In this document: positions 22,611 through 36,845 of the stretch, one piece after another | How the letters are laid out: each line of letters starts with the position of its first letter | How positions within the stretch are numbered: the first letter of the stretch is position 1 | Program-made: the position numbers and the translations under genes | The notes under the pieces: model-generated | The model's input: the letters and a program-made list of their open reading frames with translations, nothing else | Database searches by the model: none | What the model was told of the DNA's origin: nothing | DNA from: an archaeon | GTDB lineage: Archaea; Nanobdellota; Nanobdellia; Woesearchaeales; UBA9642 | Direction of reading: 5' to 3' | Assembly (NCBI GenBank): GCA_020057295.1 | Contig: JAGVGF010000003.1 | Span: forward strand, 128,001-192,000 | Length of the DNA: 64,000 bases

Positions 22611-23522
22611 ATGAAAACGGCACGTAGACGATTAGTTCAACAAGGTGAATCTACATTAATGGTGAGTCTGCCCGCTCCATGGATTAAACTAAACAATCTA
22701 GAGAAAGGTTCTGAAGTTAGTATTGATCCATTAAATTCTGATTTACTAATTAGTGCAAAGAAACAAGATTACAAATCTGAAACTTCCATAAAAATTTTAG
22801 GACACACAGAATCAGCAATAAGAACAATAGTTACAAACACTTATAGAGTAGGTTATGATAGAATACGTGTAGAATATGGAGACAAGAAACAACTTGAAGT
22901 TGTAGAAACTGTCGTAAAAAATATGCTTATTGGTTTTGAAATTGTTTCAAGAGGTCAAGGATACTGCATCATTGAGAATATTACAGAACCATCCGAAGAA
23001 CAATTTGATAATATCTTAAGCAAAATATTCTATAACATTGAAGAATTATTTACGATTACAAAAGAACGTTTAGAGCAAAAAATTCCTGAAGAAAGTTATG
23101 AAGCAATACAAGAAAGATTACAAAAATATGATAATTATTGTAAAAGAATAATATCTAAACAAAAATTTTCAAACAATAAATCAGAATTTTTATGGGCCTT
23201 TTTAGCAATACTTTTACACGCGCACAGAGAATTACATCATTTAAACAAGTTTTTACCGAAAGATTACAAGACATCAGTAGAAGTTAAAGATTTATTTAAT
23301 ATAAATCATGAAATATTTGAGTTAATAAAAAAAGCATACTTCGAAAAAAACACCTCATATCTTGTAAAAGTTCATGAGTTAGAGAAATCAACAATATATG
23401 ACAAAGGATACAAATTACTTCAAATAAAAAAGGGACCTGATGCTGTTGTAATATATCATTTGTTGATTAGCATGAGAGAATTCTATCAATCAAATAGTCC
23501 GTTACATGGGATAATACTTTAG
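22611..23522 (+). CDS. AbrB-domain/PhoU-like regulator
   Basis: N-terminal RRLVQQGESTLMVSLPAPW (AbrB), Y..GYD.I, GFEIV, helical PhoU-like C-terminus. Confidence 0.85.
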   Translation: MKTARRRLVQQGESTLMVSLPAPWIKLNNLEKGSEVSIDPLNSDLLISAKKQDYKSETSIKILGHTESAIRTIVTNTYRVGYDRIRVEYGDKKQLEVVETVVKNMLIGFEIVSRGQGYCIIENITEPSEEQFDNILSKIFYNIEELFTITKERLEQKIPEESYEAIQERLQKYDNYCKRIISKQKFSNNKSEFLWAFLAILLHAHRELHHLNKFLPKDYKTSVEVKDLFNINHEIFELIKKAYFEKNTSYLVKVHELEKSTIYDKGYKLLQIKKGPDAVVIYHLLISMREFYQSNSPLHGIIL

Positions 23523-23547: not shown

Positions 23548-25953
23548 TTATTTTTTACCTGTTCCTTCCATCATTTTACGATAATTTTGTGTAACTTCCT
23601 CTCTTTTAATATCTCTCATAATATCCGTTGCTTCTCTTGAATATCTCATTACCTTGCTGGAAAAACTTGTATCAGGTATTATTTTTTCGAATCTACTTAA
23701 ATATTTCATTTCTCCACCCATATCTTGCGATCCTGTAGACTCTCTGCTGATTGGCAAAAATGTTTGATTCAAAATATGTCCATTTTTATAAGCTATAGTT
23801 TGTAATGTTAATTCCTTAGCTGAAGGACCTTTAGGGAAATTAGGTTTAATATCTCTAACATTAGACCATCCATCACATTCATTAAATTTTTCCATATATC
23901 CTATTTCTGGAATTCTTACTACATATTTTATATCTTTATTTACAGTCATGAGACTATAATCTGATTGTCTTCCATCAAATGCTTTAAACTTTATTTCTGG
24001 ATCCCAATAATATGAGTGATTGTCGAATTCTTGTAATGATATCGCTGATGTAGAGTCTTTTAACCCATCACTTCCTATATTATTTAATATTATAGGTATT
24101 GTTTTTCTAATGACTGGTTTATCTTTGCCGTTAAATAAAATTTTTGGTGTGACTTTGTAATCTTGTTCTTTTGATAACCATTCTTTTTGATATAACGTGT
24201 CAACTGTAGGATATAATTCTATTACTAAATTACGAACTGTTCCTTCCGGAACGTTTTCTGGTAATTTTATACCCCAAAGATCTGCATAATATCCATACAT
24301 TCCCATTTCCGGTTGAAAGTCAACATCAACAGGTACTACTGATATATTGTGTATTATATCGCTACTATCAGATGTACTAGGTTCTACTCCCTCAAAATAA
24401 ACTTTACCGGAAAATCTTGTATCAAATCTTAATGATTTGGATATTGGAAGGAAATATGCATGTACATTAACAGACAATCTTGTTCCCTGATTAGCAATAT
24501 AAGCTTTTGGATTTTCCATACTTGATTGATTAGTACTATAAATCATAGTAGATACTCTAAAGAAATTATTTTCTATCTCGTTTGTCTTGTCAACCCAATT
24601 AGATTCGACTTTAAATAATTCAGCAGGTTTTTCACGTAATACTTCATATCCTAAGAATAATTGTGATGCAATCATTGCTGTTCCCAGAGTTCTTGTTGCG
24701 TATCTTTTAGTTTTACTTAACCAATCACTTGTTCCGTGTTTTTTCCAGTCTTTTATGAAATCTTGAGTAGAACTGTATCTATATATTTCGTTAGAACTTA
24801 GTGCTCTCTGTAGTACTTCATTATATTTTCTTGCATGTTTTGGAACTTCGTTGTATAATGCCAACTTTAAAGTGTAATCATAAAGCTCTTTTTTAAATAT
24901 GCCTTTCTCATCGAATAGATTTTCTTCTTTTGTGAATCTTGTTTTCAATATCTTTGCTGTTCCTGTTGATGGATCTATAGAGAATATTTGTTCTCCGACA
25001 AGCATTTCTAAAAAATCTTTTGCAATAGAATATACTTCAGTTTTATCTGTATATGGTAAGGTTATTCCCTTATTTGCTGCTGGAATCATCAAAATATCTG
25101 CTACTTGTGTTGCTCCCATCGTTGCTTGAGGTTTTATTGTAGGATGAGATTTATAACATGCATTTGCAAAATCTGTTACAATCGCTTCTAATTTTTCTGA
25201 ATCTTTCTTTTTCTTGAATACTGATCCGATTTTCTTAATACTGTCTCTTATTTCTTCGTATGCTCCTTTCCATGTGTCTTCATATTTTTTCTCTTCAGGT
25301 CTTCTTAGGTTTGTTATTATATTTCTTAGAGAAAAATCTCTATGATATGTGTCTTTTTGATCGATATATCCTAAAGCATCAAGAATATCAGAACTTAACG
25401 TGTCAAATTCTTTTCTTGTTAATGGTTTATCTTTTAATTCTGGTAACAGTAAATTTATTGAACGATATCCTTCGAAATATTTTTCTGCACTTATGAAATG
25501 TTCTTTTCCAGCATCATCTGTGGTTATCCAAAAATCTAGTACAGGACTTATGTGATGTTTGTATGCTTCCGGCCCTAAATCTACAAGTGTATCGAAATCA
25601 TTTAATGTTGTGCATCCTTGTTCATAATGTATTTTTGCTCTTCTTCCTAATATTTGTTTTCTATCTTTTTTTAAAATTCTTTTTTGTTTTCCTCTATCTT
25701 TTGAACCATAGTCTGCTATGAAGCAAGCTCTTGGTCCTGCTGTGGAAGGAGTTCCTTCTGGAGGAAGATATGTTAAATTATGATATAATTTTTTCCCTTT
25801 TAATTTTTCTTCTTGTCTTAATGCCTTTTCAATAATTAATTGTTCTCCAATTATTTCGTTTGTTAATGGAATTACATTAGGAGATGTTTCTATTAATGCA
25901 CCTTCAGTATTTACCACTAATTCTAAATCCGAAACTTCTTCATGCACGCTCAT
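23548..25953 (-). CDS. Divergent Hanks-type Ser/Thr kinase-like transmembrane protein with uncharacterised C-terminal domain
   Basis: RILKK (beta3 Lys), HRDFSLRN, TDFA, TEVYSIA, subdomain XI R; hydrophobic TLGTAMIASQLFLGY followed by about 360 aa of beta-rich sequence. Confidence 0.8.
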   Translation of the reverse strand: MSVHEEVSDLELVVNTEGALIETSPNVIPLTNEIIGEQLIIEKALRQEEKLKGKKLYHNLTYLPPEGTPSTAGPRACFIADYGSKDRGKQKRILKKDRKQILGRRAKIHYEQGCTTLNDFDTLVDLGPEAYKHHISPVLDFWITTDDAGKEHFISAEKYFEGYRSINLLLPELKDKPLTRKEFDTLSSDILDALGYIDQKDTYHRDFSLRNIITNLRRPEEKKYEDTWKGAYEEIRDSIKKIGSVFKKKKDSEKLEAIVTDFANACYKSHPTIKPQATMGATQVADILMIPAANKGITLPYTDKTEVYSIAKDFLEMLVGEQIFSIDPSTGTAKILKTRFTKEENLFDEKGIFKKELYDYTLKLALYNEVPKHARKYNEVLQRALSSNEIYRYSSTQDFIKDWKKHGTSDWLSKTKRYATRTLGTAMIASQLFLGYEVLREKPAELFKVESNWVDKTNEIENNFFRVSTMIYSTNQSSMENPKAYIANQGTRLSVNVHAYFLPISKSLRFDTRFSGKVYFEGVEPSTSDSSDIIHNISVVPVDVDFQPEMGMYGYYADLWGIKLPENVPEGTVRNLVIELYPTVDTLYQKEWLSKEQDYKVTPKILFNGKDKPVIRKTIPIILNNIGSDGLKDSTSAISLQEFDNHSYYWDPEIKFKAFDGRQSDYSLMTVNKDIKYVVRIPEIGYMEKFNECDGWSNVRDIKPNFPKGPSAKELTLQTIAYKNGHILNQTFLPISRESTGSQDMGGEMKYLSRFEKIIPDTSFSSKVMRYSREATDIMRDIKREEVTQNYRKMMEGTGKK

Positions 25954-26158: not shown

Positions 26159-27007
26159 TTATTTGAATGTGTACTTTACTGTGAATCTTTGATTCGTTTG
26201 TGGTTCTAACTTTCCTGATCCCTTGTTTGTGAATGAAGGATTCCATGATATAGACACATTATCGTTCGCCATATATTCTAAATTTCCTTCACCATAACTT
26301 GTTTCAGGTCCATCTTTAGAACTTAAGTTTACTTCGTAAAATCCTGACACTTTCAAACTTGGAGTGACTGTCGCCTCTGCATATACTCCTGTTATGCTTG
26401 TGTTTGGAACTTCTTTTCCGTGTGTATCTATTAATACTGGTGTGAAATATCCTTTTACAAATGAATCTTTAATAGGACTTACACTTAGATGTGCTCCAAC
26501 TCCTATTCTTGCAGGCATTCCTGTTCCGTAGATTAATTGATTGTCAAGACCTACATTTATTCCTGCAACGCTTGTTACATCTTTTGATAAAGTGTTTCTA
26601 CCAAATATCGTAGTTCCACCATTTACATAAAATTCAGTCCAATTATATCCGCTAATATCTGCTGGTAATCCGTAAAAAGTGTTTGTTCTTCCGTATGTAT
26701 GTTCGGGTTTTGTTCCTTGAACCCATTCGAAATTACCTGAATAGTTATCTACAGGTTGAACTGTTGGTGTAGGATTTGTTAAAGTATCTGACTGTGCTTT
26801 GTCTGAAGAATTTTCATTGAAGTATTGTCTTACTTTATTTTCCCACTTAAGTATTTCGTTATTTTGTTCTCTGGTAATTTCTCCTTTGAAAACAGGTCTA
26901 TGTTTCAATAATGCGTCAAATGTTGAATCTGATTTCACTTGCGCGCCAGCTGTATTTATTGCTAAAAATGTTAATAATGCCATTAAACTTGTTTTTATTT
27001 TACTCAT
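26159..27007 (-). CDS. Secreted beta-strand-rich protein, outer-membrane beta-barrel-like
   Basis: Signal peptide ending AGA-Q; alternating amphipathic strands; C-terminus FTVKYTFK. Confidence 0.65.
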   Translation of the reverse strand: MSKIKTSLMALLTFLAINTAGAQVKSDSTFDALLKHRPVFKGEITREQNNEILKWENKVRQYFNENSSDKAQSDTLTNPTPTVQPVDNYSGNFEWVQGTKPEHTYGRTNTFYGLPADISGYNWTEFYVNGGTTIFGRNTLSKDVTSVAGINVGLDNQLIYGTGMPARIGVGAHLSVSPIKDSFVKGYFTPVLIDTHGKEVPNTSITGVYAEATVTPSLKVSGFYEVNLSSKDGPETSYGEGNLEYMANDNVSISWNPSFTNKGSGKLEPQTNQRFTVKYTFK

Positions 27008-27027
27008 ATTATCCCCTCCGCTAAAAT

Positions 27028-27045
27028 TAACTACTATGTAGTAAT
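27028..27045. promoter_or_regulatory. Operator candidate TAACTAC-TAT-GTAGTAAT
   Basis: Near-perfect copy of the palindrome at 32393-32411, between TATA and RBS of the 27007 gene. Confidence 0.6.
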
Positions 27046-27260
27046 ATGTATAAAATATACATATTTATATAGTTTACGGTTTTTACCACTTAGCAATAGT
27101 TAATTAGCTGTTTGTCGTCTATATTTCTTGTCATTTTTGTTGTTAAATTGTGTTTTTTCTTAGTTTAAACATTTATAGAAATATATATAGTTTATACAAA
27201 ATGTTTATATGTTAGATGTGTATTCACTTAGTAGTAATAATTATTTAGGGGGATAGCAAA

Positions 27261-28376
27261 ATGAAAATAACAAATATACTTACTAGCATTGCACTTATGA
27301 GTGCATTAACATTCGGATACAAAGCGAATGCACAGGAAATTACTCCTGTAAAGATTTCTACATCAACAGACATTCAACAAACTAGTCTTAGAAATGGTAT
27401 TAGATTACATAGAACACAACTAGACATGGGAGATGTTACAATAAAGTACGATGCGAAAACAAATCTTAATCCAAGTGTTTCTAAGGATAATTTAAGCGAT
27501 GTCGGTGGAATATATGTTAGCAATATCATAAAGAAAGATAACTTCAATGTAGGAGCAGGATTAACTCAATTAGGAAATTGGGATTCAAAAAGTCAAGCTG
27601 TATTATATGGTTGGGCTGAATTAAATTATGATCAAGTCAAAGTAAAATTGGAAAAAGGACACAGTATAAGAATGACTGCTCCGATGGAATTTGATATAGT
27701 GACTGTATCAAATAGTAAATATTCTGACAATATAAATGCTATAGGCCAAGTATTTTTGATATCCAATAATGGATCAATGTACAATGGAATAGCAGGAAAA
27801 GATGCAAGCGGAAATAATAATAAAGAATTTCACGGATACTTAACTGTTGGAAATAATACTCTTACTGCAACTATAGCTGAAGAGGAAGGTACATCTCATG
27901 TATTAGGTATGGGAAAATATCTTAAAGATGTAGGAGCATTAATGTGGCTTAGAACAGACAGGTCCAAAAGAGATTGGGCATTAAGAGGAAAATTAGGATT
28001 TGGAAATATAGATGAAAAATTCTTCTCATACAACACAATGGTCGGAACTAACGATTTATTCTTACAGCCTCAATTGTATGAAGGACACTTAAGTCCCGGA
28101 ACTACAAGAGGAGATGCATCATTATCATTAACAGCCGTAGGCAATGGAAAGACTACTTCATTAGAATTAGTTCCTGGAATAAGAACTGATGTTGTATGTG
28201 TTGGTGCAGGAACATATACAGAATTCAAAAACAATCAATCAGTTACAGGATTATCTGGCGGAGTATTCAAGAAATTCTCTGTATCAGGACTTGAAGCTAG
28301 TGTTGAAGTAAATTACAAAAGCATCGGTGCAAATAAAGGATTCAATGCATACGTAACAACAAGTTATAAATTTTAA
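27261..28376 (+). CDS. Secreted beta-strand-rich protein, outer-membrane beta-barrel-like
   Basis: Signal peptide ending ANA-Q; Gly/aromatic-rich alternating strands; C-terminus YVTTSYKF. Confidence 0.65.
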   Translation: MKITNILTSIALMSALTFGYKANAQEITPVKISTSTDIQQTSLRNGIRLHRTQLDMGDVTIKYDAKTNLNPSVSKDNLSDVGGIYVSNIIKKDNFNVGAGLTQLGNWDSKSQAVLYGWAELNYDQVKVKLEKGHSIRMTAPMEFDIVTVSNSKYSDNINAIGQVFLISNNGSMYNGIAGKDASGNNNKEFHGYLTVGNNTLTATIAEEEGTSHVLGMGKYLKDVGALMWLRTDRSKRDWALRGKLGFGNIDEKFFSYNTMVGTNDLFLQPQLYEGHLSPGTTRGDASLSLTAVGNGKTTSLELVPGIRTDVVCVGAGTYTEFKNNQSVTGLSGGVFKKFSVSGLEASVEVNYKSIGANKGFNAYVTTSYKF

Positions 28377-28391
28377 TAAGGAGGAATAAAA

Positions 28392-28907
28392 ATGAACTAT
28401 ATAATTCCTCCATCGGAAAATTTTGACAGGAAATATTTGACTGAACTACATCATAATTCAAGATTAATTCTTGTAGATGATGTTGCAAAAAATACGACCG
28501 GTCTTGTAGGAATAGTTTCAAATCCTGTGCGCGTTGGTGGTCTTAGAAGACAACCTATAACGGTGAATTTTCTTGAGGATAAAGAAAAAATTCCGTTATT
28601 AAGTGGAATTGATCAAACTTTTTTTGATATTTCATATTTATTTCAGGGTGTAGACATAGGTTTTGTTGAAGAATCTAGAACTTTTGAAAATAAATTTAAT
28701 GAAATAATTCGCGGAGTATATGATAAGAATCGTGAAAGTATAGTCTGTTTTTACGATGTGCCGAAAACAAGATCTCAGAGAGTATCTGGAATGAAATCTG
28801 TTTATCCATTATATACAAAAGAAGGATGGAAACTTTTAGAACAGTATCAAGAAGAACAGCGAGTTATAAGAGAAGAAGCAGCAATGATGATGGTTCCTCC
28901 ATTCTAA
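28392..28907 (+). CDS. Hypothetical protein
   Basis: AGGAGG RBS; co-oriented with the upstream gene. Confidence 0.7.
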   Translation: MNYIIPPSENFDRKYLTELHHNSRLILVDDVAKNTTGLVGIVSNPVRVGGLRRQPITVNFLEDKEKIPLLSGIDQTFFDISYLFQGVDIGFVEESRTFENKFNEIIRGVYDKNRESIVCFYDVPKTRSQRVSGMKSVYPLYTKEGWKLLEQYQEEQRVIREEAAMMMVPPF

Positions 28908-33562: not shown

Positions 33563-33708
33563 AATACAAAGTCTGCATCTCAGTGGATGAAGAAACGTTA
33601 TTAAAAATCAGAGAACATATACGTAAAGGTAAATTCAGAAATAGATCTCACGCTTTCGAATACGCAATTTCTAAAGAATTCATAGCACAAGGTGATGCTC
33701 ATGAGTAA
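33559..33708 (+). CDS. Ribbon-helix-helix DNA-binding protein (49 aa)
   Basis: Manual translation MKYKVCISVDEETLLKIREHIRKGKFRNRSHAFEYAISKEFIAQGDAHE; overlaps both neighbours. Confidence 0.85.
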   Translation: MKYKVCISVDEETLLKIREHIRKGKFRNRSHAFEYAISKEFIAQGDAHE

Positions 33709-35827
33709 ATCATTAAAAGTTTCACTACAAAAATTACTTGGTAGTAGAGCACACTATTCTTATTTGAGCGATGTTGTATTTCCAGAATTAGAACAACTAG
33801 TGGCTGATAATATTATTGTTCCTCAAGAATTACGTAAAATAAGAGAGAACGTCGAATCTAAAGGTGTTGGTATATTAAATCCTGAAGTATCTTTTAGATC
33901 AGACATAACACGTAATACTTATGAGGCTGATGGTTGGATTGCTGAAACAGTTAATGAACTTGCTCCAGGAGTAAATGTTTCACACATTATTAAGAAATGT
34001 TCATCTAAAGAAGATTTCAAACGTAGTGTTAGAACTTATAGATCACTCGAAAGTGCATTAAAAGATACTCCTTATCAAGGCAAAATTCCTAAACATTTTT
34101 ACGCTATAAAATCAAAAAAAATTATTGACGCGCCTTTTGTAAAGGGAAAAATACTTTCAAGAGAATTAGATGAAAGTTCACAAGAAGACAAAGAAGCGTA
34201 TCTAAAAGGATGTATTGCAGATTATATAGATTTTTACAAATTTTTGAATCAACCTGAAGTTTCTCAGAAATTAGATTTAGGGCAATTATCAGATTTTAAT
34301 GAATTTTTCTTCTTCAAGTATTCAAAGAGCGGACCATTATTCCAATTATATCAGAGGGATATCGGTAATGATCTGAATACCGTTGGTAAGAAAGTTATTC
34401 AAGGAGACTTAGTTCCAACTAACGTTCTACACGGTGCAGAAAATGCATCTGATTTTTCATATGTAGATTGGGGTAATGCAGTAAACAATGGATTTTTAGA
34501 ATTTGATATAGGATATTTATTAAAAAAATCTAAAGTAACTCCTGAAGTTGAAGAGAAATTAGCAAGATATGCTGCAGAATTAGCTTATGATACTTCTGAA
34601 GATAGAGAAAGATCATTTAAGATATATACAAAAAATATGATTACACAAGAATTATTATCTGCTAGAAGATATGTTGATAGATCAAAATCTAAGGATATAA
34701 TTGACTCGGATCAAAGAGTTTCTTTAGAGAATATGGCTTTAGTAAATTATAATCGTGCAGTTGCAAGAACAAGAACTGCTGTAAATCGTGGAATTGTTAG
34801 TCAAGAATTTTTGAATGCTTTAGTTGATCAACCTATCGATGGATTAAAAGTTGTAGAAAATTATGATCACTTACTAAAAGATTGGGATCCAGATGGGTCT
34901 ATGTCGCAAGACAATTTAGTTCCAAAAGATATTACAAAAGCAGAACAATATGATCCAAAAAAGAATTTGAAAGCTATAAAGAAAAGCATATTCCGTGAAA
35001 GATCCCGTTCATTGACTTATTCAGCCTTGAAAATATTTGCTGTAGTCAGCGCTCTAAGTATGGCTGGAGGAATAATCTATAATCAGAATAGGGAAACTGA
35101 AATGCTAAAGGAAGATGCTGAAAAGACAAGAATAAGTTATCTTCAAGATAACACCACAAATTTATACGAAAGTTTATTCAGACGTCAATTCGATCTGGTT
35201 TCGAGAAGATTTGCCGAGGGATACAAGCAACTTAGTTTTAGAGAGAACGACACGAGAATTGACAGTGTAGCAAAAAAATATCAACTTGATCCACAATTAA
35301 TAAGGAATATAATGAAGGTCAATAGAGTATATGCTGGATACACTACTTTGGCTAGTGACCAAACCCTTGATGTTGAGGGAATCAGTGTTGCTGATTGTAT
35401 ATCTATGGCTGACTCAATTAATGAAACGAGACGTATGAGTACGTTTTATTTGCGTGATAATGAGGTAGAATCACTTGATCCTGTCAAGAATCTTGAGGCC
35501 TGTGCGCAAAGATTAAGTAAATATTTTAAAGAAGAAAAAGAAAAAACACCTCTAGAATCTGTAGGTTCATATGAAATATATGTCACAGAGCTCAATAAGC
35601 GTGTCTTAACAAGATTTTTCTTTCCATTTACGGAGAAAAAAGAACTTAATGTTGGAGAAAAAAGTTATCACATGCCTTATGGAGATTTCAGCGAATTAGA
35701 AATGAAAGATATACGTGATAGGGTTGTTAGACAGTTAGTCTATAATGCGATGTATGGAATATCTCACGGCGCGGAGTTCGGGCATTTGTATAGTTCATCA
35801 TTAAAAACCCCTCCGGATAATTTTTAA
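33701..35827 (+). CDS. APH/choline-kinase-like phosphotransferase + TM helix + lytic transglycosylase (SLT)-like domain
   Basis: IIKK, QGDLVPTNVL, YVDWG, FDIGYL; TM IFAVVSALSMAGGII; IDSVAKKYQLDPQLIRNIMKVN...DPVKNLEACAQRL. Confidence 0.75.
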   Translation: MSKSLKVSLQKLLGSRAHYSYLSDVVFPELEQLVADNIIVPQELRKIRENVESKGVGILNPEVSFRSDITRNTYEADGWIAETVNELAPGVNVSHIIKKCSSKEDFKRSVRTYRSLESALKDTPYQGKIPKHFYAIKSKKIIDAPFVKGKILSRELDESSQEDKEAYLKGCIADYIDFYKFLNQPEVSQKLDLGQLSDFNEFFFFKYSKSGPLFQLYQRDIGNDLNTVGKKVIQGDLVPTNVLHGAENASDFSYVDWGNAVNNGFLEFDIGYLLKKSKVTPEVEEKLARYAAELAYDTSEDRERSFKIYTKNMITQELLSARRYVDRSKSKDIIDSDQRVSLENMALVNYNRAVARTRTAVNRGIVSQEFLNALVDQPIDGLKVVENYDHLLKDWDPDGSMSQDNLVPKDITKAEQYDPKKNLKAIKKSIFRERSRSLTYSALKIFAVVSALSMAGGIIYNQNRETEMLKEDAEKTRISYLQDNTTNLYESLFRRQFDLVSRRFAEGYKQLSFRENDTRIDSVAKKYQLDPQLIRNIMKVNRVYAGYTTLASDQTLDVEGISVADCISMADSINETRRMSTFYLRDNEVESLDPVKNLEACAQRLSKYFKEEKEKTPLESVGSYEIYVTELNKRVLTRFFFPFTEKKELNVGEKSYHMPYGDFSELEMKDIRDRVVRQLVYNAMYGISHGAEFGHLYSSSLKTPPDNF

Positions 35828-36729
35828 TTAATATTCAGTAACTGTCCCATTATTTTTATGATATGTTCTGTGATAGTTTCAAAATGTTTTAATATTATTA
35901 TTTCGGAATTTTTTATTTTAGAATTTTCTAATTGTTTGTTTATTTCTTTTATTATTTTGTCTCTCTCTACAGCTATTTGTACAGCTTGATCGAAGTTGAA
36001 TTTTAGAAATAATTTTTGCATCTCTTTATTGTAACTATTTATATTTTGATATATTGAAATAAATTCTTTATTTAATTGCATATTGTTTTCTGTAATGTAT
36101 TTGTTTAGCTTTTTATATTCGTCCGCTATCTCTTCTATCAAAAACAATGCGCAATACAGTACTGCTGTTTTCTTATGATCTGAATGTCCCTTCTTGTTTA
36201 GTATTCTAAAACAATAGTCTGTGAATTTATTGATATTTTTTTCAATATCTGATGTGTATTCTAAGTCTGTATTTTTTTCTTGAATTGTTTTTAGGCTTTC
36301 ATCAGATAATGTGTTGAGTAGATATAATACTCTTTTTATTATATTTTCAAAATTGTCTTCTCCTGCGGATGCCATATCTTTGATTATTATTCTGTCTTTT
36401 CCTTGATCTATTATTTCTACTCCTATTAATTCGTCAACTCTTCGTTGTATGATTCTTGATTTATCTAGTGTATCAAATATTACTTCTATTTCATCATTGC
36501 CTTTTAGATATCTTGAAACTAAAATTCTTTTCATTAACTTATCATATTTTGATAGATCTATTATTTCTCTTACTACTGAGCCTTTTCCATCTGTTGTAAT
36601 TACTAAACTACTGTTTTCTTGTTCTACGTTTATCTCATCGCCAGGCTTCAAATTTGTTGTTTTGAACCATTTACTTGGTAGACTTATGACCATTGTTGCT
36701 GGTCCTAATTTCATTATTTTCCGCTTCAT
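35824..36729 (-). CDS. AbrB-domain/PhoU-like regulator
   Basis: MKRKIMKLGPATMVISLPSKW..LKPGDEI, YLKGNDEI, GVEII, INKFTDYCFR; paralogue of 22611-23522. Confidence 0.87.
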   Translation of the reverse strand: MKRKIMKLGPATMVISLPSKWFKTTNLKPGDEINVEQENSSLVITTDGKGSVVREIIDLSKYDKLMKRILVSRYLKGNDEIEVIFDTLDKSRIIQRRVDELIGVEIIDQGKDRIIIKDMASAGEDNFENIIKRVLYLLNTLSDESLKTIQEKNTDLEYTSDIEKNINKFTDYCFRILNKKGHSDHKKTAVLYCALFLIEEIADEYKKLNKYITENNMQLNKEFISIYQNINSYNKEMQKLFLKFNFDQAVQIAVERDKIIKEINKQLENSKIKNSEIIILKHFETITEHIIKIMGQLLNIN

Positions 36730-36845
36730 AACAATGGTTAAGCACAAATAATATATAAATATTTCGAATTTATCTATATATCTATATACATATATAGTAT
36801 ATATTAAAAAAATATATATAAGTGGTTGCTGTTTCTATATTAAAC

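Follow-up and report, generated by a model that had tools for sequence, protein, structure and literature searches.

How does a small archaeon come to carry two neighbouring genes for exported proteins that resemble the outer-membrane channels of bacteria, and in which membrane would such proteins work? The question is raised by a locus in a stretch of 64,000 nucleotides (contig JAGVGF010000003.1, positions 128,001 to 192,000; hereafter the window) from an archaeon of the order Woesearchaeales. In our numbering the window is G000:C1:128001-192000, with G000 as the source genome; other G-numbers denote related genomes and L-numbers denote loci. Both open reading frames (ORFs) described in an earlier note on this DNA are real. 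They are divergently oriented and lie 253 bp apart: gene A (26159..27007, minus strand) encodes 282 amino acids (aa) and gene B (27261..28376, plus strand) 371 aa. Our analysis indicates with high confidence that both genes are native to a small archaeon of the DPANN type, that their products are unrelated to each other, are exported via Sec and fold like the outer-membrane channels of bacteria, that the two genes belong to orphan families found in a few per cent of the order's genomes, and that family B also occurs in Patescibacteria-type bacteria.

Both proteins begin with a predicted Sec signal peptide in which a charged n-region is followed by a hydrophobic core and then by A-G-A|Q in A and A-N-A|Q in B. 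The cleavage sites (INTAGA|QVKS in A and YKANA|QEIT in B), which by their sequence are of the signal peptidase I type, place Gln at position +1, as the earlier note had proposed, and the A-Q pair is invariant in the four-sequence alignment of each family. In 30 of the 37 aligned B-family sequences the signal peptide ends with a small residue ahead of a Gln. A Q rule is the subject of two papers (PMC5837995, PMC10653852). Neither protein has an internal membrane helix according to a heuristic hydropathy test with a 19-residue Kyte-Doolittle window, in which the highest mean past the signal peptide was 0.88 in both.

The fold of A was modelled directly. The AlphaFold2 (AF2) model built from the four-sequence alignment reached a predicted local distance difference test score (pLDDT) of 62.3 and a predicted template modelling score (pTM) of 0.51, with 119 residues at pLDDT 70-90. 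Behind the signal peptide (residues 1-22) the model has a helical N-terminal extension (residues 28-65 approximately, with helices at 28-35 and 46-65), then a linker of low confidence and finally a beta-barrel whose 12 strands all lie between residues 89 and 280. When the model was compared with 48,161 PDB representatives by VIA-align, Tsx (PDB 1tlw) ranked first with Z 18.2, a root-mean-square deviation of 3.2 and 191 aligned residues. KdgM/NanC-type 12-stranded porins were found at further ranks, namely KdgM (PDB 4pr7; Z 16.6, 171 aligned), NanC (PDB 2wjr; Z 16.5, 182 aligned) and VhGalP (PDB 8xua; Z 15.6); barrel residues 85-282 of A superpose on these structures with 171-191 residues aligned. 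Soluble proteins were few among the 50 entries listed, the best of them with Z 9.4 over 133 residues. A Foldseek search of the PDB gave 65 matches at E<=0.001, of which those listed are membrane barrels, one of them designed. A soluble sandwich, the outcome that the earlier note had set against its own reading, was not found in the fold checks.

The strand alternation that had been noticed in the sequence of A is also present in the model, in which the 12 strands have one hydrophobic and one polar or charged face. In a ten-sequence alignment of the family (A4), 42 of 66 positions on the first face are hydrophobic and 2 are charged, whereas the second face has 17 hydrophobic positions out of 68 and 15 charged ones. 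The difference between the faces was 2.13, compared with 1.18 +/- 0.25 in within-strand permutations, and was reached by 1 of 2000 of these. We infer from this mid-confidence model that the pattern is that of a lipid-facing belt around a polar lumen.

According to the model, A has the strand number, the small size and the monomer-like shape in common with Tsx, KdgM and NanC. In contrast, its sequence is unrelated to theirs, with 8-13% identity in the structural alignments (13% for Tsx), and it differs from them by the extra helical N-terminal extension, the Lys at its end, its occurrence in an archaeon without Omp85 and a TrmB neighbour in other genomes. A matches no Pfam family at E<=1, including KdgM, which we take to be PF06178, and no NCBIfam family; the A-family profile found no PDB sequence at E<=10. 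The protein would therefore be shaped like, and may work like, the Tsx and KdgM/NanC channels, yet it falls outside their sequence definition. A second likeness is to the amyloid secretion channel FapF (PDB 5o65; Z 14.0, 186 aligned), which like A is a 12-stranded barrel behind an N-terminal helical part; its sequence is unrelated, however, and a fap-like operon is absent around A.

For B the evidence on the fold is indirect. Its signal peptide is predicted to be cut before Gln25. The mature protein starts with a conserved segment (..STxTD/TET..), continues as an all-beta body and ends in YVTTSYKF. The AF2 prediction from a four-sequence alignment consisted entirely of hairpins, with about 18 strands, and had a pLDDT of 30.8, which is unusable as a model. 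An exhaustive profile search of 1.84 billion representatives yielded 49 relatives at E<=0.001. One of them is P0022, an NCBI protein from a 'Patescibacteria group bacterium' (88-kb contig), for which the ESM Atlas holds a model with pTM 0.53 and pLDDT 0.57. In structural comparisons this model aligned with clusters of PapC-type ushers (PF00577), DUF6029 proteins of Ignavibacteriota, BBP2_2 'beta-barrel porin 2' proteins (PF10082) and unnamed proteins, with TM-scores of 0.56-0.65 over 268-310 residues; by language-model features P0022 is near OmpG porin clusters (0.89). These likenesses belong to P0022 and not to B itself. On the basis of this mid-confidence model of a homologue, B is probably a large barrel. 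In contrast to the large outer-membrane barrel families named here, none of the 37 aligned B-family members matches any Pfam family, B has no NCBIfam match, and the B-family profile found no PDB sequence at E<=10; as far as sequence can tell, B fits no named family. The claim that both proteins are exported and barrel-like thus appears to hold, for A by its own model and for B through P0022.

The C-termini had been compared to the signal that is recognized by the beta-barrel assembly machinery (BAM). They read as quoted in the earlier note, and the comparison is apt for the aromatic end of B but not for A, where Lys follows Phe. Members of family B end in F, Y or L in 22 of 37 cases, and 6 of 10 members of family A end in F-K or F-Q. 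In three members of family B (L034:7998-9272, L038:6212-7351, L039:7992-9089) and one of family A (L049:7992-8753) the A-Q signal peptide is replaced by another N-terminus, with a motif ..G(Q/S)PDTT(A/V)LEQK that is common to members of the two unrelated barrel families. This N-terminus was considered as a general sorting signal and rejected, as the corresponding DNA pattern matches just 4 known genes in 5 genomes.

Several lines of evidence show that the genes belong to the archaeal genome. The source assembly comprises 1.20 Mb in 6 contigs with 31% GC, a completeness of 100% and a contamination of 0.46%, and the contig of the window is 251 kb long with even GC along its length. Its archaeal nature, assumed before, is confirmed by the small-subunit rRNA (1391.8 bits with the archaeal model vs 1065.8 with the bacterial one) and by aIF5A (57.2 and 25.8 bits) 2 kb from B; an M50 protease (96.1 bits) likewise lies within 2.5 kb of B. 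The remaining genes of the window are ordinary housekeeping genes, for example TGT (415.6 bits) and a class II aminoacyl-tRNA synthetase (239.8 bits). The GC content at third codon positions (GC3) is 0.201 in A and 0.199 in B, compared with 0.203 +/- 0.034 in the 705 ORFs of the genome with at least 200 aa. Comparison of B with its 72%-identical orthologue in G001, a genome of the same genus, gave dN 0.175, dS of about 1.24 (near saturation) and pN/pS 0.26, which argues for purifying selection on B. Together with homologues in related genomes beside archaeal-type regulators, these values bear out the view that A and B are integrated in the archaeal genome. The 20 homologue loci that were fetched range from 29 to 62% GC, and at L030/L035 (62% GC), the single high-GC locus read in detail, the barrel gene has GC-rich codons. 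One holder of A, G114, is a single-contig genome. Collections of plasmids and phages contained no match for A or B. Contigs of a groundwater metagenome (X1; 0.14 share of words) placed 15 pieces of a relative on the window, 2 at 99% likeness or more, 4 at 95-99% and 9 at 90-95%, none of them across the A/B region. In G001, a metagenome-assembled genome, one contig (L003) is titled 'Methanosarcinales archaeon' while an A-family member (P0068) is labelled 'Candidatus Woesearchaeota archaeon'; at least one of the labels is likely wrong.

To establish the distribution of the two families, 301 evenly sampled genomes of the order, including the source genome, were surveyed. Family A was found in 12 of these (9 genera) and family B in 7 (4 genera). 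Six of the seven B holders also carry A (G000, G010, G008, G078, G295 and G303, from three genera); since these genomes are kin, the co-occurrence counts as three lineages and not as six. The proposal that the divergent pair forms a unit did not hold, as the two families are unrelated and their adjacency is confined to the source genome. Homology of A and B was rejected: BLASTP gave E 2.2, and hhalign a 21% probability that came from the signal peptide only. In G010 and G008 A and B lie on separate contigs. The A gene of G008 is found in a region syntenic with C6:110-112 kb of the source genome and an A-like fragment in G001 lies next to a TrmB-like gene, so that the position of A differs among the three genomes. 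A and B are unrelated, co-occurring families with a patchy, accessory distribution.

The intergenic region (27008..27260, 253 bp) is AT-rich and comprises the upstream regions of both genes. Shine-Dalgarno-type words are present in front of both, GGAGGGG 5 nt ahead of the ATG of A and GGGGG 9 nt ahead of that of B; the 3' end of the 16S rRNA reads GGATCACCTCCT. The start signals had been described as archaeal TATA boxes and a GGGG-type ribosome-binding site shared with native genes. TATA-like words do occur, but not above background in a genome with 31% GC, where TTTATA is found upstream of 280 of 909 ORFs. The GGGG type is enriched before native ORFs (62 of 909 vs 10 in a control window), although the main type of this genome is GGTG (150 of 909). 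Downstream of B, at a distance of 15 bp and behind AGGAGG, follows an ORF of 171 aa (28392..28907, plus strand) with no signal peptide and no family match; no counterpart was found at the other B loci.

Regulatory genes recur in the neighbourhood of both families. Of the 9 B loci, 5 have a protein of about 300 aa, which we call F3, no more than one gene away from B, and 2 more have it at a greater distance. In the window, F3 (22611..23522, plus strand, 303 aa) consists of an AbrB/MazE-type N-terminal DNA-binding domain (MazE_antitoxin, 26.1 bits vs a cut-off of 24.7) and a helical part of 250 aa. The adjacent F4 (23548..25953, minus strand, 801 aa) belongs to the Hanks-type Ser/Thr kinases, although in degenerate form, and has a large C-terminal part; its Pkinase score of 17.6 bits is below the cut-off, while orthologues reach 111.7 and 64.4 bits and have one membrane helix each. 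The gene order B, F3, F4 is found in four of the five loci with F3 close to B (L034, L035, L036, L039). In the window F3 and F4 are found on the far side of A, which suggests that A was inserted between F4 and B. Another pair, consisting of a kinase-like protein (711 aa, no Pfam match) and an AbrB-like protein, is located at 33692-36747, 5 kb from B, and includes a paralogue of F3 (35824-36747, minus strand); its counterpart (L037:3755-6798) directly flanks the B gene of G303. At A loci, a regulator of the TrmB family is adjacent or one gene off in 7 of 13 cases, with scores of 47.5-58.9 bits in 4 of 4 neighbours tested, and one further A gene is divergent from an Lrp-type regulator. A paralogue of B in the source genome, B2 (C5:56161-57231; locus L040, C5:55828-57231), and its G001 orthologue (L041) are divergent from an Lrp/AsnC-type regulator with two winged helix-turn-helix domains. 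Behind B2, both genomes encode a lipobox protein of about 100 aa.

Family B is not restricted to archaea. Besides P0022, a relative from a '[bacterium]' (P0063) lies on a 510-kb contig, and a metagenome scan with a four-sequence alignment of the P0022 subgroup detected 18 loci. At L057 (976-kb contig) the neighbours of the B homologue are bL20, IF-3, Pth, the bacterial topoisomerase I (TopA) and EngA; UvrA accompanies it at L067 and an S26 signal peptidase at L069. The bacterial nature was checked at these three loci, and at L054 by its label; at the other metagenome loci it was deduced from the shared gene order. In a quick IQ-TREE analysis of 54 rows, from which rows shorter than 320 aa, a split copy in L061 and database duplicates of genome rows had been left out, 13 metagenome and 10 unlabelled rows formed one clade (SH-aLRT 97) with no archaeal row inside. 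The 10 archaeal rows fell outside this clade in at least two groups, and both paralogues of the source genome were in one clade of 13 rows (99). The tree has no root and therefore gives no direction of transfer, and the sampling of metagenomes is biased by the query. Judged from these sequences, family B is common to Woesearchaeota-type archaea and Patescibacteria-type bacteria. At four bacterial-type loci (L054:2605-3729, L057:8792-9922, L061:2030-3148, L067:8815-9930) the B homologue directly follows a conserved, N-terminally anchored protein of 371-376 aa without a Pfam match; the L061 copy of B is split into two frames.

Insertion of the pores by a host BAM, or else an unusual envelope, had been suggested, together with a search of the genome for BamA. 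This search gave no BamA homologue: Omp85 (PF01103) had no match at E<=1 in the 100%-complete source genome. Similarly, none of 10 further barrel-holding genomes (90-100% complete) had a match above the cut-off, with positive controls in 7 diderms. LpxC was not found in the source genome either. Nevertheless, other genes of bacterial envelope type are present. The type A sorting domain of the type IX secretion system (T9SS) exceeded the Pfam cut-off in five ORFs of the source genome with 30.6-39.6 bits (L022, C4:172242-172967; L023, C3:175469-177571; L024, C3:181642-183441; L025, C5:13771-14499; L029, C2:256789-257841), and in 34 of the 301 genomes of the order, of which the single-contig genome G034 has 4 copies. 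PorV and SprA had no match in the source genome (NF033710, TIGR04189), the SprA search being one without a positive control. Gln at +1 was considered as a mark of the barrel and T9SS set and found not to be exclusive to it, according to genome-wide counts from two crude signal-peptide heuristics. A lytic transglycosylase of the SLT family (C5, about 31.0-32.1 kb, minus strand; 342 aa, 43.1 bits) carries a hydrophobic segment at its N-terminus, behind DRKTFLK.

Three further exported ORFs of the source genome are barrel-like. L020 (C1:51199-51936, 245 aa) ends in QISKQF and represents a third family found in 9 of the 301 genomes, among them G000, G039, G295 and G303, the count taking in the unpublished G260; no relation of A to L020 was found. 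L021 (C4:170910-172220, 436 aa) ends in AGYIF and is found in the source genome only, apart from one marginal match; it was considered as a diverged Omp85 and gave no match. L028 (C2:72364-73707, 447 aa) scores 17.2 bits with OMP_b-brl, below the cut-off. An ORF of 437 aa in G008 (C6; L072:1861-3171, minus strand) has an A-Y-A-Q site, ends in ALIGINF and scores 13.5 bits with Omp85, also below the cut-off; it is unrelated to L021 by BLASTP and may be another barrel family.

What could such proteins do in this organism? We tentatively put first the possibility that the barrels serve as accessory equipment in contacts between the archaeon and a partner cell and act as channels in the partner's membrane. 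Membrane insertion, channel activity, target membrane and regulation are all conjectural parts of this proposal. A and B would be exported via Sec and their signal peptides cleaved, and the mature barrels would enter a lipid membrane other than the archaeal cytoplasmic membrane. The target would most likely be a bacterial partner's outer membrane where the two cells touch, and there the inserted barrels could serve as solute channels that feed the symbiont. A might be switched by the linked TrmB-type regulator and B by the membrane Ser/Thr kinase together with the AbrB-like protein. We place this possibility first because the genes are patchy, mobile within genomes and co-occur as a set, because family B is found in two unrelated groups of ultra-small symbionts, because the source genome combines a murein-cutting SLT enzyme with T9SS tags but lacks the machinery that reads them, and because B is tied to a membrane sensor kinase. 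Moreover, bacterial hosts have already been proposed for some Woesearchaeota in a passage of Castelle et al. 2021 (PMC8204110).

A number of points weigh against a role in a partner membrane. An archaeal Sec substrate is not known to have any route into the periplasm or membrane of a bacterium, and the host is hypothetical. The model of A is of middling confidence (pLDDT 62.3, with the remaining four models at 35-52), and B has no usable model of its own. A ends in FTVKYTFK, with Lys last, Phe at position -2 and no terminal aromatic residue, and just 12 of 37 B-family members end in Phe. Regulators of the sugar and amino-acid type (TrmB, and Lrp/AsnC at B2 and one A gene) would suit nutrient porins of the archaeon's own at least equally well. 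The additional barrel-like ORFs L020, L021 and L028, together with the lipoprotein gene after B2, give the impression that the archaeon has an outer-membrane proteome of its own. Besides, diderm archaea, including ARMAN and Altiarchaeum, are reported in a part of PMC8871954.

The partner-membrane explanation is thus just narrowly ahead of, and nearly tied with, the idea that A and B are the cell's own porins, which we consider doubtful though serious. The lineage, and likewise the Patescibacteria with family B, would then possess an undescribed outer lipid layer. A and B would be regulated channels for nutrients in this layer, and their insertion would need no Omp85 but would be spontaneous or due to an unknown factor. 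In favour of this are the several barrel-like ORFs in one genome (A, two B paralogues, L020, L021 and L028), the lipobox protein behind B2 in both G000 and G001, the neighbouring regulators of nutrient type (TrmB at 7 of 13 A loci; Lrp/AsnC at one A locus and at the B2 loci), and the fact that KdgM, NanC and Tsx, the nearest in fold, are uptake channels with specific substrates. However, Omp85 exceeded the cut-off in 0 of 11 barrel-holding genomes, whereas every membrane known to hold outer-membrane-type beta-barrels, in diderm bacteria, mitochondria and plastids, also has an Omp85 insertase. LpxC is likewise missing from the source genome, and it would be surprising if a basic part of the envelope relied on families present in only 4% and 2% of the sampled genomes of the order, unless different barrels take their place in other lineages. 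The diderm archaea ARMAN and Altiarchaeum would be precedents; the few Patescibacteria described are monoderm according to sections of PMC8871954 and PMC13278184.

A more elaborate version of the partner-membrane idea, which we regard as unlikely, is that the archaeon and the Patescibacteria with family B export proteins made for a diderm host. The BAM of the host would insert the barrels and its secretion system would handle the type IX-tagged cargo, so that pores and surface proteins of the symbiont would be installed in the host envelope by a cross-domain mimicry of sorting signals. It also seems unlikely that the barrels never enter a lipid bilayer and instead share only the shape, as binding or adhesin modules associated with the surface or S-layer or as secreted carriers. 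No insertion machinery was found in the barrel-holding genomes searched for Omp85, the helical N-terminal extension of A could act as a tether, and the confidence of the models is moderate; T9SS sorting domains without their machinery in the source genome indicate that bacterial envelope modules can persist in a new context. In contrast, the strand faces of A (42 of 66 hydrophobic and 2 charged on one side, 15 charged on the other) have the pattern of a lipid belt, and soluble entries in its structure list score lower (best Z 9.4, 133 residues).

Improbable is a use as weapons, in which the barrels would be delivered into the membrane of a competitor or prey and cause leakage in the manner of pore-forming toxins. 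The accessory, patchy distribution across two groups of ultra-small symbionts and the wall-cutting SLT enzyme of the source genome are compatible with it. However, no immunity gene is conserved beside A or B, the closest folds are uptake channels, and known beta pore-forming toxins are assembled from many soluble subunits instead of being monomeric barrels of 12 to 18 strands. Finally, an artefact, be it a chimeric contig, bacterial contamination of the bin or a fresh import of functionless bacterial genes, is very unlikely: bacterial-looking Gln +1 signal peptides and C-termini and bacterial relatives of B might suggest it, but the 251-kb contig has even GC with aIF5A and the M50 protease no more than 2 kb away, GC3 is the same as the genome average, purifying selection acts on B, homologues occur across the order (including the single-contig G114) beside archaeal-type regulators, genome contamination is 0.46%, no plasmid or phage matched, and the chimeric assembly considered in the earlier note was not found.

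In the literature searched, such barrels were not described for DPANN archaea or for Patescibacteria, although the supplements of PMC8204110 and PMC12228718 may list relevant families. The terms 'outer membrane', 'porin' and 'barrel' are absent from the main text of PMC8204110, and a passage of PMC12228718 points to a possible distant PopA relative in Altiarchaeales. New in our study are a family (B) that spans two domains, the joint occurrence of A and B, their linkages to TrmB and to the kinase/AbrB genes, and the check for Omp85 over 11 genomes. The analysis thereby describes two unrelated families of putative outer-membrane-type barrels that are native to archaeal genomes without Omp85 and tied to archaeal-type regulators. 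If the barrels reside in an outer layer of their own, these ultra-small cells would be surrounded by an outer lipid layer with a novel mode of barrel assembly; if they are meant for a partner, ultra-small cells would place barrels in the partner's membrane. Either outcome would mean new cell biology for half of archaeal diversity, and A, B, the linked regulators and the kinase offer concrete handles for its study.

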